Below, piece after piece: positions 3,008 through 60,503 of a DNA stretch of 61,313 nucleotides. The stretch lies in the NCBI GenBank assembly GCA_945861225.1, contig CAMATU010000002.1, forward strand, positions 1 through 61,313, in the 5' to 3' direction. Positions within the stretch are counted from its first letter, which is position 1. Every line of letters begins with the position of its first letter. The notes under the pieces were generated by a model. The model made no database searches and was not told the DNA's origin. It saw only the letters and a program-made list of their open reading frames with translations. Made by a program: the position numbers and the translations under genes. This stretch comes from Klebsiella pneumoniae. Its GTDB lineage: Bacteria; Pseudomonadota; Gammaproteobacteria; Ga0077536.

Positions 3008-3904
3008 ATGTCCGGCACTACACACCGTACCTCCATTAGCTATATTGACCGCACACGCGAGTATTACCACGCGCTGGGCTATGCGAAGCCTTACGTGTGG
3101 GCGCGCCACACGGACGCCGCTTTCGCCGCGCTTGCGAAGCCGCTGGCGCAGAGCCGGCTCGCCCTGGTAACTACCGCGAGCCCGTGGCGCGAAGACCAAG
3201 CTGCAGACGGCGCTCCGCGTGGCAGCAAGCGAGTGTGGTCGGGAGCGACCGAAGTGCCACCCGCGCGCCTGCACACGGAAGATCTCGCGTGGGACAAGGT
3301 GACCACCCACACGCGCGATGTGGAATCCTTCCTGCCCATTCGCCGCCTGCAAGAGGCAGTGGCAGCGCGGCGCATCGGAAGTCTTGCCGCCCGCTTCCAT
3401 GGCGTCCCGACGGATTACTCACAGCGCCGCACCATTGAACAAGATGTGCCTGAAATCCTCGCACGCTGCCGCGAAGATGAAGTTGATATCGCGCTCCTCG
3501 TTCCGCTCTGACCCGTCTGCCACCAGACCGTGAGTCTGGTCAGTCGCCACCTCGAGGAGAACGGAATCGCGACTGTCGTGATCGGCTCGGCGCGCGATAT
3601 CGTCGAGGAATGTGGCGTTGCGCGCTTTCTCTTCAATGATTTTCCGCTCGGCAATCCGTGCGGGAAGCCGTACGACGTTGAAATGCAACGCGCGATCGTC
3701 GGTCTGGCGCTCGATCTGCTGGAGAGCGCGTGGCTACCCCGCACGACCGTGCAGACGCCGTTCCGTTTCAGCGAAGAGGAGAGCTGGAAGCAAAACTATG
3801 CGCGGGTTGATCCTGCGCAGAGTGCGGAGCTGCTGCGTTTGGGTGAGCAACGTCGGAAACTCAGGGACAGTTTACCGATTACACCTGCAGTCTCCGACTC
3901 CTAA
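3008..3904 (+). CDS. GrdB/PrdB-family (selenoprotein B-like) reductase subunit, in-frame UGA 3509-3511 read as Sec168
   Basis: Track ORFs 3008-3511 and 3530-3904 are in the same frame and are separated only by one TGA. Read-through gives ...DIALLVPL-U-PVCHQTVSLVSRHLEENGIATVVIGSARDIVEECG.... There is an AGGAG RBS 8 nt upstream of the ATG, a hairpin just after the TGA, and selD in the same window. Confidence 0.75.
3517..3543 (+). promoter_or_regulatory. Candidate bacterial SECIS hairpin
   Basis: The structure is CUG-(CC bulge)-ACCAGAC-cguga-GUCUGGU-CAG. It starts 6 nt after UGA 3509-3511, and the apical loop contains GU. Confidence 0.5.
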
Positions 3905-14199: not shown

Positions 14200-14285
14200 T
14201 TTGCTTTAAGCCGCGCCGTACTTTGCCGCTAACCAGAGCGACTCATCCGAATCAATGCCGCGCTACGCGGCAGGGAGTAGCGCTT

Positions 14286-15216
14286 ATGGCGATCATAAAA
14301 GAGCCCCCAATCACCGCCCCCGCGTCGCTGGCGAGCGCACCAAAGCCGGTGACAGTGGCAGATCTGGTGCGTGAGGTTTCAGCCCTTGCGTCACTCCCCG
14401 GTGCCTGCCTGCGCGTGATGGAAATCGCGGACGATCAGCGCGCCTCCTCGCGCGACATGGCGGAAGTGATCAGCATCGATCCAGGCTTATCGGCCCGTCT
14501 GCTGCGCCTGGTAAATAGCGCCTACTACGGTTTGCCCGAGCCGCTCGACAATGTCGCTCAGGCGGTGCACGTGATCGGCACCAGCGCGCTGCGCAATCTT
14601 GCGCTGGCGACCGGTGCGGTGAGCGCCTTCAAAGAGATCCCAACGACCTTGGTCGATATGGATGCCTTCTGGAATGCGAGCGTGCATTGTGGCTTGCTCG
14701 CCCGTGCGCTCGCCCGCATCGCCCGCCATCAGCAACCCGAACGTCTGTTTGCGACCGGTCTGCTGCATGCAGTAGGTCAGCTGGTGATGTACACCCAGGC
14801 GCCAGCGCGCGCGTCTGGTGCTCGACCAGATCCGTGCACAACCGCAGACGCGGCCCGCCATCGAACAGCAGGTGTTCGGCTTCGACTACTGCGAGGTTGG
14901 TGCCGCGCTGCTGGAAGTATGGCGACTGCCGCCCAGCATGTGGATGCCGATTCGTCATCATCGCAATCCGGTCGCCGCCACCGACTACCGCACCGATACT
15001 GCCGTCCTCACGATTGCGCAAGCCGTCACTGCCGTTTTCGAGCCCGATGTAAAAACCGGCATGCCCCTCACGCGCAGCGCACCTGCGATCGACGCCGTGG
15101 CCTGGTTACAGAGCGGACTGGTGGCCGATGTCCTGCCACCGGCACTCGAAGAAGTGGATGCGCAATGGTTTGAAGTCATCGAAATAATCTCACCGGGCGG
15201 GACCTTGGTTTACTGA
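14286..15216 (+). pseudogene. HDOD domain protein, frameshifted in a (GC)n tract near 14805-14813
   Basis: The frame-A product ends in Arg/Cys-rich nonsense after ...GLLHAVGQLVMYTQAPARA. The frame-B ORF (14818-15216) continues with HDOD-like LVLDQIRAQ...QQVFGFDYCEVGAALLEVWRLPPSMWMPIRHH. Adding one CG unit restores ...APARARLVLDQI.... Confidence 0.7.
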
Positions 15217-16789: not shown

Positions 16790-17968
16790 TCAGCAGACTT
16801 CAAACAAGCCCGCTGCACCCATCCCCATGCCGACGCACATGGTTACCACGACATACTTCACGCCGCGCCGCTTGCCTTCGATCAGTGCGTGACCGATGAG
16901 GCGGCTGCCGGTCATGCCGTAGGGATGGCCTACTGCAATTGCACCGCCGTTTACATTCAGGCGATCGCTCGGAATGCCGAGCTTGTCGCGGCAGTAAATG
17001 ACTTGCACGGCGAAGGCTTCGTTCAGTTCCCACAAGCCGACGTCCTGCATTTTGATGCCCGTGAGTTTGAGCAGCTTCGGCACCGCGAAGACCGGGCCGA
17101 TGCCCATCTCATCGGGCTCACACCCGGCGACGGCGAAGCCGCGGAAGATGCCCATCGGGGCTAGCCCCTTTTTCGCGGCAAGTTTGTCGCTCATGACCAC
17201 CTGCACGGCCGCGCCATCCGAGAATTGACTGGCATTACCGGCCGCTACACAGCCACCTTCCATCGCCGGTTTGATGACTGACACACCTTCGTAGGTCGTA
17301 TCCGGACGAATGCCTTCATCTTCGCTGGCAGTCACCTCTCGTACCGATTCCTGACCGGTGTTCTTATCAATGACCTTCATCTTGGTGGTGATCGGCACGA
17401 TTTCGTCTTTGAACTTACCCGCCGCGCGCGCCTTGCCGGCCTTTACCTGACTCTCGGCACCGTAGCGATCCTGGACTTCGCGCCCAATCTTGTAGCGTTG
17501 AGCGACGTTCTCGGCAGTCTGCAGCATCGACCAATAGACCGCTGGCTTGTTCGCGAGCAGCCATTCGTCTTCGAACATGTGCTTGTTCATTTCGTTCTGC
17601 ACGCAGGAGATCGATTCCACGCCGCCGGCGACATAGACCTCGGCCTCGCCAGTCATGATGCGCTGCGCGGCGAGTGCGACGGTTTGTAAGCCAGAGGAGC
17701 AGAAACGGTTAACCGTCATACCAGACACGGTGACTGGCATCCCGGCGCGGAGCGCGGCCTGGCGGGCGATATCCGAACCTGTCGCGCCTTCGGGATTCGC
17801 GCAGCCGAGAATCACGTCGTCGACTTCGCCGGCTTCAATGCCCGCGCGTTCGACCGCTGCCTTGATGACATGGCCTGCCATGGTCGCACCATGCGTGATG
17901 TTAAGGGCGCCGCGCCAGCTTTTGCAGAGCGGTGTGCGGGCGGTGGCAACGATTACGGCTTCAGTCAT
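16790..17968 (-). CDS. Acetyl-CoA C-acyltransferase (thiolase)
   Basis: [18 protein letters not shown] (active-site Cys), [22 protein letters not shown]. Confidence 0.9.
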
Positions 17969-55278: not shown

Positions 55279-55377
55279 CCAGTAGACACAGGCAACGGTC
55301 GAGGTGGCAGGATGAAATGGACTGCGCTACTAATCGGACTCAGCATCGCGTGAAATTCCTCGGCGAAGGAGGATTGC

Positions 55378-55722
55378 GTGCAGCAGGCGGCGACCGAACT
55401 CGAGATCAATCTCTCGTCTGGGGTGTATACCGAACGCGCGCAGGTGAGCGCGCCGCTCAAGCTCCGCATTCCCACCGGCATTAACCCGAATGCCTACGGC
55501 GCGTGTCTGCAGATCCAGGGCAAGGATCCCTCGCGCAATCTGATCAACACGGTTGCCAGCATGCGAGAGTGCCAGCGGGCGGCGCGCACCACGCGCTTGG
55601 TGGCGGCGACCTCCGCCACCGCCAAGCACATCGCGAGCGAAGTCGATACCACGTTCTACGAGTCCTGTGTTAAGAACCAAATCGAGGTTGAGGTGTTTCT
55701 GCTTACTGCAGGACTCGATTAA
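55378..55722 (+). CDS. Hypothetical Cys-containing protein; possibly the mature part of an exported protein starting at 55312 (see findings)
   Basis: Strong coding-like codon bias. GTG 55378 is preceded by AAGGAGGA. An in-frame lipoprotein-like signal peptide (ATG 55312) lies upstream, separated by a single TGA. Confidence 0.45.
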   Translation: MQQAATELEINLSSGVYTERAQVSAPLKLRIPTGINPNAYGACLQIQGKDPSRNLINTVASMRECQRAARTTRLVAATSATAKHIASEVDTTFYESCVKNQIEVEVFLLTAGLD

Positions 55723-56385: not shown

Positions 56386-58779
56386 ATGAAAGGCAATAAG
56401 CATCCGCAGAACGATGTCACGATCAATCCGTCAGGTAATCCCTCGATCCGCGATCTAATCTCGCAGATCGATCTGGATCGCCGACACTTTCTGAGTACCG
56501 CAGTTCACGCCTCGGCGCTGGCTGCGGTGAGTGGCCTGTCTACCGCCGGCTTACTGCTGCCTGGTACGGTGGAAGCTGCGCCAATTCTGCCGAGCAATGG
56601 TTTCGGCGGGATCGGTTTTGAGAGCATTGCAGCGAAGCTCGCACCAGTGGCGAATTCGGTAGAAGTGCCAGCCGGGTACACCGTTGAACTTCTCGCTGCA
56701 TGGGGACAACCGATCATGCCGGGCGCACCGGACTGGAATCCGGATGCGACGCAAACGGCCGCAGATCAGCTCAAGCAATTCGGCATGCATAACGATGGGA
56801 TGCATTTTTTCTCATTTCCGACGCGCGGCGGACTTTCCAATGTGCGTGGAATTCTGTGTGTGAACAATGAATACACCCACGAAGGAATTCTCCACGGTGC
56901 TGATGGGTTAGTCGGCACACTCGGTGTGACGATCGCGAAAGTGCGCAAGTCGCAAGCCGGCCACGGCGTTTCCATCATGGAAGTTCGCAAGAGCTTCGGC
57001 CCGGATGGGGACAAATGGGGAGTCGTGAAGACTTCACGCTATGGACGCCGCCTCTCCGCGAACACCCCGATGAGAATGTCCGGCCCCGCCGCCGGGCACG
57101 CGCTCTTAAAGTCCAAGAAGTTCTCGATCACGCCCACGGGTTCGACCGAGATCGGTTTCAACGATGGCTTCACTGCTTTCGGCACGCACAATAATTGCGC
57201 ACACGGCTATACGCCGTGGGGCACCTACCTCACCTGCGAAGAGAACTGGAACGGTAACTTCGGATCCAATGCCGGTGATCCTGCGCCGACAGATTCCTCA
57301 GTCGCGAACGGTCAGGTGCGTTACGGTGTTTCAGCGGCCGGATTCAACTATCAATGGCATGTCGCCGATCCGCGCTTCAATGCGCGCACCAATCCGCTCG
57401 AACCGCATCTCTACGGGTGGGTCGTCGAAGTCGATCCGTTTGATCCCAACAGCGTACCGGTCAAGCGTACTGCACTGGGGCGCATGAAAAAAGAAAGTGC
57501 GCATGTCGCGCTGAGCAAGGATGCAGAGAACACCCCAAAGAGAGTCGCGTTCTATATCGGCGACGACGAACGTAATGAGTATGTCTATAAGTTTGTCTGC
57601 GCTGGCGCATTCAATCCAACCAATCGCGCCGCGAATCGGGATCTGATGGATGCCGGTATTCTCTATGTCGCGAAATTCACGAATACCGCAGGCGCCAGTA
57701 ACGGGACTTTCCGAGGACAGTGGCTTGCGTTGGTGCCGGACACGCTCTCCGTGATTTCCAATGGCAATGGCGGCTTCTTCAAACTGGGCGAACTCACGCA
57801 GTTCGGTGCGCCGGTGCAAGGCACGGCCAATCCGAATGACGCGGAAGTCCAGGCATTGATTCTCATCAAGACCCGGCAGGCTGGCGACGCCGTCGGTGCG
57901 ACGATGATGGATCGTCCAGAATGGACTGCACTGCGCACTTACAACAATGGACATGGCAATGGTCCTTTAGGCTATGACGCGCAGCACCCGCTCGAACTTT
58001 ACTGCACGCTGACTAATAACAGCCGGCGCGGCGGTGGTGGGACTATCTCCGTGAACAACCCGAACGGTACGACCGGTGCCGGCACGGCGCGACCACCAGT
58101 CGATGTCGCGAATCCACGGCCGGACAACGACTATGGACACATCATCCGTTGGCGCGAAGACGGAAACTTCGTCACCGCCACCGGTTTTGAGTGGGATATC
58201 TTCACGATTTGTGGCGACACGCAGGTGCCGGTCACCAAGACGCTTGCCGCGAACTACCTGAAGGACAACTTCATCGGGGTGGCGACCGCTGACTCGGATT
58301 TCAACAAGAAGATCTACGAAGGCAGTATCAATGACGCGCCGAACGGCAGTGCCGACTTTGGGGCGCCTGATGGCCTGTGGTTCGACCAATTCGGTCGGCT
58401 ATGGATACAGACTGATCAAATTGGCGATGCCAGCGGCGATTTTGCCAACGTCGGTGCGAATGTCATGTGTTGCGCCGATCCGAACACCAAGGAAATTCGC
58501 CGTTTCCTGACCAGCCCACGGAACTGCGAAGTGACGGGCGTCATGAATACGCCAGATGGCAAGACCATGTTCGTCGGTATCCAGCATCCGGGTGAAGATT
58601 CACTGGCTGCGAATCCCACTGAGTTCAGCAATTGGCCACAAAGTCAGTTCGATAAGAACAGCGCGGGTGAACCATTGGCAGTGATCAACAAAGTGGTCCA
58701 GCCGATCGGTGCCAATATCCGCCCGCGCTCTTCGGTGCTGGTCATTACCCGCACCGACGGCGGGGTGATTGGCGCCTGA
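56386..58779 (+). CDS. phoX: PhoX-family alkaline phosphatase (DUF839), Tat signal
   Basis: DLDRRHFLSTAVHASALAAVSG. YTPWGTYLTCEEN is the hallmark motif. Also FDQFGRLWIQTD; 797 aa. Confidence 0.9.
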   Translation: MKGNKHPQNDVTINPSGNPSIRDLISQIDLDRRHFLSTAVHASALAAVSGLSTAGLLLPGTVEAAPILPSNGFGGIGFESIAAKLAPVANSVEVPAGYTVELLAAWGQPIMPGAPDWNPDATQTAADQLKQFGMHNDGMHFFSFPTRGGLSNVRGILCVNNEYTHEGILHGADGLVGTLGVTIAKVRKSQAGHGVSIMEVRKSFGPDGDKWGVVKTSRYGRRLSANTPMRMSGPAAGHALLKSKKFSITPTGSTEIGFNDGFTAFGTHNNCAHGYTPWGTYLTCEENWNGNFGSNAGDPAPTDSSVANGQVRYGVSAAGFNYQWHVADPRFNARTNPLEPHLYGWVVEVDPFDPNSVPVKRTALGRMKKESAHVALSKDAENTPKRVAFYIGDDERNEYVYKFVCAGAFNPTNRAANRDLMDAGILYVAKFTNTAGASNGTFRGQWLALVPDTLSVISNGNGGFFKLGELTQFGAPVQGTANPNDAEVQALILIKTRQAGDAVGATMMDRPEWTALRTYNNGHGNGPLGYDAQHPLELYCTLTNNSRRGGGGTISVNNPNGTTGAGTARPPVDVANPRPDNDYGHIIRWREDGNFVTATGFEWDIFTICGDTQVPVTKTLAANYLKDNFIGVATADSDFNKKIYEGSINDAPNGSADFGAPDGLWFDQFGRLWIQTDQIGDASGDFANVGANVMCCADPNTKEIRRFLTSPRNCEVTGVMNTPDGKTMFVGIQHPGEDSLAANPTEFSNWPQSQFDKNSAGEPLAVINKVVQPIGANIRPRSSVLVITRTDGGVIGA

Positions 58780-58889
58780 GGCAGGCGGCAATTCGGGCAG
58801 ACGCAACCACCTAAGCTCGGGACCGCTGCATTCGGCGGCGGTCCTCAATTGAATGAGAGGAAACCTAGATGAATATCAAGAATCTTATC

Positions 58890-58909
58890 GGCACGGCACG
58901 GCACGGCAC
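58890..58909 (+). repeat. Pentanucleotide tandem repeat (GGCAC)x4 inside a signal-peptide coding region
   Basis: Read directly as ggcacggcacggcacggcac. It lies between ATG 58869 (GAGGAA RBS) and the mature-domain frame that begins at 58924. Confidence 0.9.
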
Positions 58910-58923
58910 TGCTTGCCAGCGGC

Positions 58924-59544
58924 ATGATCACCGTGTCCGCACAGGCAGCCGTGGTGACCACCAATGCCGGCTTCGGCGTCTTTGAAGATTTCGAAGGCTT
59001 CGATGGCCTCGTCACCAAAGGACCACAGGCGTTGAATGCGGGAGCAGTCGTCACTTCCACGATCTTCTCGACGATCGGGGCTTTCGGCGTTGACTTAGTC
59101 AACAATGGAACGTGGGGCGCGGCGAACAATTTCGCCGGGATCGGCGATTTGTCGTCAATCCCGCTCACCGATGAAGGCTTCGTCGGCAGCATGACCTTTG
59201 ATCTCGACGTCGCGCGCAGTGGGGTGGGCGCAGATTTCAGCATCTATCACGACGGTTTGGAATCCGCCGTAATCACTATTGAAGCCCTCGGGGTGGGTGC
59301 CGAAGTTCTGGAGACCGCAACCTTCGCGGTGGACTTTAATGATCCACTCGGAACAAACACTGCGCTGTTCCGCGGCTTCGTCCATAACACGGCGGATATC
59401 GTTGCCCTGCGCGTCTCGGGAAATGGCTTCGTGGTGGATAACTTAAGTGCCGTGCCGGTGCCGGCAGCGCTGCCGCTGATGCTGGGCGGACTCGCGGCGT
59501 TGGGCGCCCATCGGCGTCGCCGTCACGCGGTCGTTTCCGTTTGA
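58924..59544 (+). CDS. Secreted protein of unknown family with CTERM sorting tail; 5' end out of frame with its signal-peptide start at 58869
   Basis: The ORF starts mid-signal-peptide (MITVSAQA-AVV). The tail is VPVPAALPLMLGGLAALGAHRRRR. See the repeat finding. Confidence 0.6.
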   Translation: MITVSAQAAVVTTNAGFGVFEDFEGFDGLVTKGPQALNAGAVVTSTIFSTIGAFGVDLVNNGTWGAANNFAGIGDLSSIPLTDEGFVGSMTFDLDVARSGVGADFSIYHDGLESAVITIEALGVGAEVLETATFAVDFNDPLGTNTALFRGFVHNTADIVALRVSGNGFVVDNLSAVPVPAALPLMLGGLAALGAHRRRRHAVVSV

Positions 59545-59583
59545 ATGAGTCCACGAAGTAATCGACTCGTGGAGACGTGCGTG

Positions 59584-59614
59584 AGCTGGGGGAACATTGA
59601 GGCATCCCCCAGCT
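59584..59614 (+). terminator. Hairpin (10-bp stem) after the 58924-59544 gene
   Basis: agctggggga-(11 nt)-tcccccagct. No clear T-tract follows. Confidence 0.3.
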
Positions 59615-59660
59615 TGAGCCGGTTCGACGGGCTGCATAATCTTTCTGCGCCCCGCTTGAT

Positions 59661-60503
59661 ATGACGTGCGTAAAACTGTCTGGATGGTCGCCAGCGCTTC
59701 TTTGGACAACGCTGGCGTTGACCCCCGTGGTGGTGTGCGCTGAACAGCTGACACTGACGCCGAGTAAAGACACCACGTTAAGTGAGGATGATTTCAACTA
59801 CTCAAACGGTGCAGGTCCTTCCGTTTTTATTGGAACGACGGCCGGCGGCCGGCGTCGCGCCTTATTGAAGTTCGATCTCTCGGGGTTGCCGGTCAGCGCC
59901 CAGATCACCAGCGCACAGCTGAGATTCTTTATCGATAGAAACGGCACAGGATCGGGCGCGGATTCCGCAACCCTGCACCGGATGCTCGCGGCATGGGACG
60001 AAGGGACTTCGTTTGCCACTGGCGGCACCGGCACGCAAGCTACCGAGATGGACGCGACATGGCAGTACCGTGTGTACGGCAACCCACCTGCTGTTCCCCG
60101 CATCGAATGGTCCAATCTCGGCAGTGATTTCGCATCGTCCGCGTCTGCAGCGATTTCGATTCTCAGTTTAGGCGCTTATACATTCTCAGCGACACCCACG
60201 CTCGTCGCGGATATTCAGGGCTGGGTTGTCGCGCCAGCCAATAATCATGGGTGGGTGTTTATTGGGCCGGAGGATGGTCGTTCACAAACCGTACGCCGCA
60301 TCCTGAGTCGAGAATCCAGTGACGTCGCGAATCGTCCGACCTTGACCATTGATTACATCGTCCCGCCAGTGACGATCCAGACGGTCCCCTTGCCAACCTG
60401 GGCGCTTTGGGTGCTCGGTGTGCTCGTATGCGCTGGAGGTGCTCGGGTGGCTCGACGCTCGATGAGACTCGGAAGTCTGAGTCACGAAAATCAGCCTGGA
60501 TAG
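59661..60503 (+). CDS. DNRLRE-domain protein with CTERM sorting tail
   Basis: Signal peptide. PSKDTTLSE...RRRALLKFDLSGLPVSAQITSAQLRF...WDEG matches the DNRLRE domain pattern. The tail is VPLPTWALWVLGVLVCAGGARVARR. Confidence 0.7.
   Translation: MTCVKLSGWSPALLWTTLALTPVVVCAEQLTLTPSKDTTLSEDDFNYSNGAGPSVFIGTTAGGRRRALLKFDLSGLPVSAQITSAQLRFFIDRNGTGSGADSATLHRMLAAWDEGTSFATGGTGTQATEMDATWQYRVYGNPPAVPRIEWSNLGSDFASSASAAISILSLGAYTFSATPTLVADIQGWVVAPANNHGWVFIGPEDGRSQTVRRILSRESSDVANRPTLTIDYIVPPVTIQTVPLPTWALWVLGVLVCAGGARVARRSMRLGSLSHENQPG

Follow-up and report, generated by a model that had tools for sequence, protein, structure and literature searches.

A frameshifting GGCAC repeat in the signal-peptide codons of a phoX-linked VPLPA/PEP-CTERM protein: probably a recent null allele and not an evolved switch

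Does a pentanucleotide repeat at the 5' end of a gene for a surface protein turn that gene on and off, or has it simply broken the gene? This question is raised by a perfect (GGCAC)4 tract in a 61,313-nt stretch of DNA (the window, to which all positions refer unless a contig is named). The signal-peptide codons of a surface protein are the classic position for a repeat-number switch, as in the opa genes of Neisseria (PMC6803597). An earlier reading of the letters alone (hereafter the sequence-only reading) described the locus as a phase-variation-like OFF state, in which the number of repeats would switch a CTERM-tailed surface protein on and off; it named a pseudogene or a sequencing error as the alternative.

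We confirmed the tract and its consequences for the reading frame. Four perfect GGCAC units are present, and TRF reported the same run as CGGCA x4.2 at 58889-58909 with 100% matches. The unit is not a triplet and lies within the 5' coding region, where the tract covers codons 8-14 of the ancestral ORF. The frame opened by ATG 58869 runs into TGA 58983-58985 after 38 aa, and the long downstream ORF (206 aa) lies in the +1 frame relative to it, with an ATG-to-ATG offset of 55 nt. Given that 55-5k is a multiple of 3 only after the loss of two copies or the gain of one (or four), the frame is restored only by 2, 5 or 8 units and is lost with 1, 3 or 4. Thus the sequence-only reading was correct in placing GAGGAA and ATG 58869 one base out of register with the downstream frame, and in its arithmetic of 2 and 5 copies in frame and 3 and 4 out. 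The frame of the 206-aa ORF is closed upstream by TGA 58870-58872, and between this stop and 58924 it contains no ATG, GTG or TTG. No further lesions were found within the ORF. The features of the locus are listed in Table 1.

Table 1. Positions of the features at the repeat locus and in its neighbourhood.
Feature	Position	Strand	Evidence and remarks
phoX, Tat-type alkaline phosphatase PhoX, 797 aa	56386..58779	+	PF05787 E=6e-144; immediately upstream
GC-rich hairpin, 9-10 bp stem, 5-nt loop, in the gap between phoX and the gene	58820..58844	+	RNA fold; conserved in orthologues
Shine-Dalgarno GAGGAA for ATG 58869	58857..58862	+	sequence; GAGG and ATG kept in 7/7 orthologues
Ancestral start and first 10 signal-peptide codons (MNIKNLIGTA), now a 38-aa out-of-frame product	58869..58985	+	
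(GGCAC)4 tract, frameshifting lesion	58890..58909	+	TRF; 10-nt gap in 7/7 orthologues; same in 3 other assemblies
Remaining gene: MITVSAQA (last 8 signal-peptide residues), beta-sandwich mature domain, C-terminal sorting tail	58924..59544	+	
VPLPA-CTERM / PEP-CTERM sorting tail (VPVPAALPLMLGGLAALGAHRRRR)	59452..59526	+	TIGR03370, PF07589
DNRLRE/CBM96-domain protein, PEP-CTERM-like tail	59661..60503	+	NF033679 E=5e-19, PF24517 E=1e-10; downstream

The relatives of the encoded protein establish what has been lost. We searched 5.8 billion protein clusters, derived from about 15 billion proteins, and obtained 79 relatives besides the window's own protein. Nearly all of them are 206-238 aa long, and every relative that was read starts with a canonical Sec signal peptide. 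The 206-aa ORF is 90% identical to the intact 221-aa protein P0002, whose N-terminus is MNIKNLIGTGLLASSMITVSTQA/AVV (the slash marks the cleavage site), and P0003 (81% identical) begins with MNIKNLIGTALLASSMVTVSAQA/AVV. The orthologues are 217-225 aa long and share the N-terminus MNIKNLIGT(A/G)LLASS...SAQA/AVV. Met 58924 aligns with their Met16, inside the signal peptide, so that the downstream ORF does start in the middle of a signal peptide, as had been supposed. The two-copy product that the sequence-only reading had predicted, MNIKNLIGTALLAS...SAQA/AVV, is exactly what the orthologues encode; the tract therefore separates a genuine, conserved signal peptide from the mature domain behind it. 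The peptide is broken by the frameshift in the window and present in all orthologues and, on this comparison, is an ancestral feature of the family that was lost in the lineage of the window.

The remainder of the protein fits the same family. The C-terminal tail, also noted previously, scored 36 bits against the VPLPA-CTERM model TIGR03370 (38.7 in the genome scan; cut-off 25.35) and 20.3 against the PEP-CTERM model PF07589, just below the cut-off of 20.7. Apart from this tail, no Pfam or NCBIfam domain matched the 206-aa ORF. An AF2 model of moderate quality (28 sequences; pLDDT 64, pTM 0.66) was all-beta with a C-terminal helix, and Foldseek against the PDB gave only weak CBM6/CBM32/CBM22-like beta-sandwich matches (E >=2e-3, TM <=0.5). 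We take the gene to be this strain's copy of a conserved Sec-exported beta-sandwich protein of ~220 aa with a VPLPA/PEP-CTERM tail.

We also compared seven orthologues as DNA (P0002, G005, P0003, P0008, P0009, P0012 and P0006). All seven are intact, encode the N-terminus MNIKNLIGTALLASS... and retain the Shine-Dalgarno sequence and ATG, and all have exactly 10 nt fewer at the tract, which appears as a clean alignment gap. Their sequences at this position are ATCGGCACGGGGCTG (P0002 and G005), ATCGGCACGGCGCTG (P0003, P0008 and P0009), ATCGGAACGGCACTC (P0012) and ATCGGCGCAGCGCTG (P0006); none has more than two GGCAC units, and the second unit is mostly imperfect. JGI metagenome contigs, scanned with the conserved 5' end ATGAAYATCAARAAYCTYATCGG, gave 0 matches and so no further alleles. 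The gap shared by all seven indicates that the window carries a lineage-specific duplication of 10 nt. Since the orthologues have at most two units, the lineage of the window must earlier have had ATC GGC ACG GCA CTG, that is, a perfect GGCACGGCAC, and the alignment resolves (GGCAC)4 into this ancestral GGCACGGCAC plus a 10-nt tandem duplication. The abundance of such tracts points in the same direction: base composition predicts ~0.007 perfect pentamer tracts of at least four copies for the 4.53-Mb genome, whereas two were observed, which argues that (GGCAC)4 was produced by duplication and not by chance.

An error of assembly or sequencing, with the true tract in frame, would make the lesion disappear. 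The source genome is a fragmented MAG (354 contigs, N50 17 kb, 88% complete, 4.53 Mb), and short repeats are prone to mis-assembly. However, exact-sequence look-ups with the neighbouring proteins and the 206-aa product as queries recovered the same locus in three other public assemblies, Logan ERR5863107, ENA ERZ27280297 and ENA ERZ27280223, the latter two as MEGAHIT k141 contigs of 36 kb and 18 kb, respectively. All three were 100.000% identical to the window over 5.4-7.4 kb and had the same (GGCAC)4. Two different assemblers and at least three data sets thus agree, which makes an assembly error very unlikely; in addition, the 20-nt tract is shorter than the assembler k-mers, so that its copy number was read directly, and a 10-nt insertion is atypical of sequencing error. 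We therefore give the artefact scarcely any chance. Of the alternative named by the sequence-only reading, the pseudogene half probably holds, in the sense of a null allele, and the error half is very unlikely. The allele is real and is carried by the clone in several samples. Given the identity of 100.000%, the four assemblies represent the same clone, possibly from related samples, and their agreement accordingly says little about stability over time.

Taken together, these observations are best explained by a recent null allele of a conserved phoX-linked VPLPA/PEP-CTERM protein, and this is probably what the locus is, rather than an evolved switch. In the proposed course of events, signal-peptide codons 8-11 (ATC GGC ACG GCA C) would have become a perfect two-unit direct repeat, GGCACGGCAC, in the lineage of the strain, and replication slippage or tandem duplication at this repeat would then have added 10 nt (two units) to give (GGCAC)4. 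Ribosomes starting at the conserved Shine-Dalgarno sequence and ATG 58869 would be out of frame beyond residue 10 and terminate at 58985. Translation of the mature domain would be possible only from ATG 58924, which has no Shine-Dalgarno sequence and is followed by only 8 of the 23 signal-peptide residues; we therefore infer that the allele yields no protein that can be exported and sorted. Slippage could bring the tract back into frame at 2 or 5 units, probably at the rate of ordinary mutation or at one only modestly above it.

We also considered the possibility that the four-copy allele is still exported, through an ATA 58873 or ATC 58882 start or through +1 frameshifting. The downstream frame is open from 58873, and translation from ATA or ATC would by accident give a plausible signal peptide, ...LSARHGTALLASGMITVSAQA (also given as ...SARHGTALLASGMITVSAQA), with a positive n-region (R, H), the native h-region and the AQA cleavage site; ATA 58873 is located 11-12 nt past the Shine-Dalgarno sequence. 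However, ATA and ATC are very weak initiators and would have to compete with a perfect Shine-Dalgarno-ATG combination whose ATG lies 4 nt upstream, and known +1 slippery motifs are absent. The orthologues need no such device, so that export of this kind would have to be accidental, and we see only a slim chance of it. Programmed frameshifting and transcriptional slippage were rejected: the sequence offers neither a slippery motif nor a homopolymer, and the orthologues stay in frame with no such help.

The remaining question is whether the null allele is the OFF state of a switch, that is, whether the phoX-linked surface protein is ON with 2, 5 or 8 units and OFF with 3 or 4, and the assemblies captured an OFF majority. 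Several features are consistent with this. The pentamer lies where the signal peptide of a surface or secreted protein is encoded and is formally analogous to CTCTT in the opa leader, the ORF behind it is otherwise undamaged, the tract is far above chance expectation, and the change from two to four units could perhaps have occurred by repeated slippage. This change needs one 10-nt event or two successive slips, and two slips, if they took place, would hint at some instability. Against switching, none of the seven orthologues is expanded beyond two, mostly imperfect, copies, and at the consensus level no copy-number difference was found between the four assemblies of the clone. The length of the tract is also short: PhasomeIt-type surveys use a cut-off of at least five units for phase-variable tracts of tetra- and pentanucleotides, and CTCTT tracts of 1-4 copies place an opa locus among the non-phase-variable ones (PMC5953494), so that (GGCAC)4 falls below the hypermutable range. 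The genome does not contain a set of such tracts either; in 4.53 Mb we counted two pentamer tracts of at least four copies, two tetramer tracts of at least four and a handful of 6-10-mer tracts. Finally, no in-frame version of this strain's protein occurs among the 5.8 billion protein clusters, where the best non-self match is 90% identical. We therefore regard phase variation at this locus as unlikely. What stands of the earlier proposal is that the assembled allele is OFF, in the sense of a null; the on/off control by repeat number is not supported. The sequence-only reading had itself suggested that orthologues without the repeat, starting at the downstream ATG, would speak against switching. 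All seven lack the repeat; they keep the upstream ATG.

A further variant is that a contingency locus has only just been born here, in an environmental proteobacterium that is free-living and non-pathogenic. The perfect GGCACGGCAC would have arisen by a synonymous change, slippage would have begun, and a phosphate-starvation-linked PEP-CTERM surface protein would now toggle between ON (2 or 5 units) and OFF (3 or 4). If this speculation is true, the birth of phase variation has been captured outside host-associated bacteria; we consider it quite improbable.

Other repeats in the same genome were also inspected. The only other pentamer tract of at least four units is (GCCGT)6.4 at 8379-8410 of contig C88 (L038:1880-1911), which belongs to the reverse-complement class of GGCAC and is found directly after a truncated ORF for a selenium-binding protein (SBP56), ~50 nt upstream of a fatty-acid-hydroxylase/rhodanese gene. 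We used it as a control for repeat drift between samples; the (GCCGT)6 tract is identical in ERZ27280223, and the control is therefore non-discriminating. On contig C172, (GGTCTCG) x6.7 (3670-3717; L039) lies in a gene whose N- and C-terminal halves are in different frames. By eye we take this gene to encode a ParE/RelE-type toxin, which may have been inactivated or switched by the heptanucleotide repeat. On contig C25, (TGCG)5 (17915-17934) is located inside an apparently intact open frame of 510 aa, which is unbroken although the unit is not a triplet.

Two other genes in the window are interrupted as well. In an HDOD-domain gene (14223-15216) the reading frame changes at a run of GCGCGCGCG (14806-14814), which divides the gene between two frames; this is the second frameshift of the 61-kb window to coincide with a repeat. 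A small, lipoprotein-like exported ORF (55312-55722) reads MKWTALLIGLSIA, then TGA at the position of the lipobox cysteine, and then continues in the same frame (NSSAKEDC...); this stretch is 100% identical in two other assemblies. These two lesions suggest that sporadic gene inactivation is not rare in this clone. A mutator background, in which loss of mismatch repair would lead to indels at repeats, was rejected: mutS is intact (an open frame of 854 aa) and mutL is present.

We then examined the age of the lesion through selection on the gene. Pairwise dN/dS values in the family are 0.06-0.24, which indicates purifying selection; the value between the window and P0002 is 0.37, although this is a very close pair (dS 0.14). 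Two replacements at conserved sites, G to A in WGAGN and D to N in SGDGF, are private to the protein of the window; close relatives have 0-3 such changes. There is no clear signal of long-standing decay, and given that the ORF is otherwise intact and has only two private changes, we take the lesion to be recent.

The neighbourhood of the gene gives an indication of its role. PhoX is encoded directly upstream of the orthologue in all 13 loci that were compared (L002-L004, L023, L025-L029 and L031-L034), and a DNRLRE/CBM96 PEP-CTERM gene follows downstream in eight of them. These loci come from MAGs labelled Methylobacter, Methylomonas, Proteobacteria ST_bin11 and Hydrogenophaga, from a same-genus MAG and from unclassified Pseudomonadota/Gammaproteobacteria MAGs. 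The conserved order of phoX, beta-sandwich PEP-CTERM gene and DNRLRE gene suggests that PhoX has a partner at the cell surface, so far uncharacterised. A search of 58600-59750 gave no sigma-70-like promoter, and the hairpin between phoX and the gene has no T-run and is thus not a canonical terminator; for these two reasons co-transcription with phoX is plausible, and the hairpin may be an RNA-stability or attenuation element. If the genes are co-transcribed, 560 nt of untranslated mRNA might lower the expression of the downstream DNRLRE gene by polarity.

The sorting system of the strain was also considered. Neither PF09721 and TIGR04178 nor tblastn with three same-genus exosortases gave an exosortase match in the 88%-complete assembly, in which the glycosyltransferases that neighbour exosortase were likewise undetected. 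Five relatives (G005, G009, G011, G017 and G029) have two exosortase genes each. About 11 CTERM tails (5 PEP-CTERM and 6 VPLPA) are still encoded in the genome. The absence of exosortase from the assembly could reflect either loss or the incompleteness of the MAG; loss, if real, would relax the selection that acts on every PEP-CTERM substrate.

In annotation, the 206-aa ORF is to be treated as what a frameshift has left of a conserved secreted protein of 221 aa, and not as a protein starting at Met 58924. A listing of the tract among phase-variable loci would be unwarranted without read-level evidence. On the reading of a null allele, the strain is a natural knockout of a candidate PhoX partner that is itself uncharacterised.

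Finally, we compared the locus with known systems. Like the PEP-CTERM and VPLPA-CTERM substrates of exosortase (TIGR02595, TIGR03370), the protein has an N-terminal Sec signal, here in its orthologues, and a C-terminus consisting of a VPxPA motif, a hydrophobic helix and an Arg-rich tail. Unlike these substrates, it is encoded in an assembly, that of the 88%-complete MAG, in which no exosortase gene is detectable. In Neisseria, the opa tracts are long, vary between loci and strains, and switch at ~1e-3 per generation. The present locus resembles opa in that the codons for the signal peptide of an exported surface protein contain a repeated 5-nt unit and in that the copy number sets the frame of the mature domain, with one copy number in three being ON (PMC6803597). 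It differs from opa in having only four units, with invariant assemblies and orthologues that lack the tract, and in the protein itself, which is an unrelated beta-sandwich with a PEP-CTERM tail and not an Opa outer-membrane beta-barrel, to which neither Pfam nor NCBIfam indicated homology. The closer likeness is to ordinary pseudogene formation through a spontaneous frameshift, by tandem duplication or slippage at a short direct repeat: a single lineage has doubled an existing pair of units (+10 nt), with a truncated product, an otherwise intact ORF and similar sporadic lesions nearby. Nothing essential sets the locus apart from such a frameshift; its one special feature is that the event has left a short microsatellite, so that reversion would be somewhat likelier than for a random indel.
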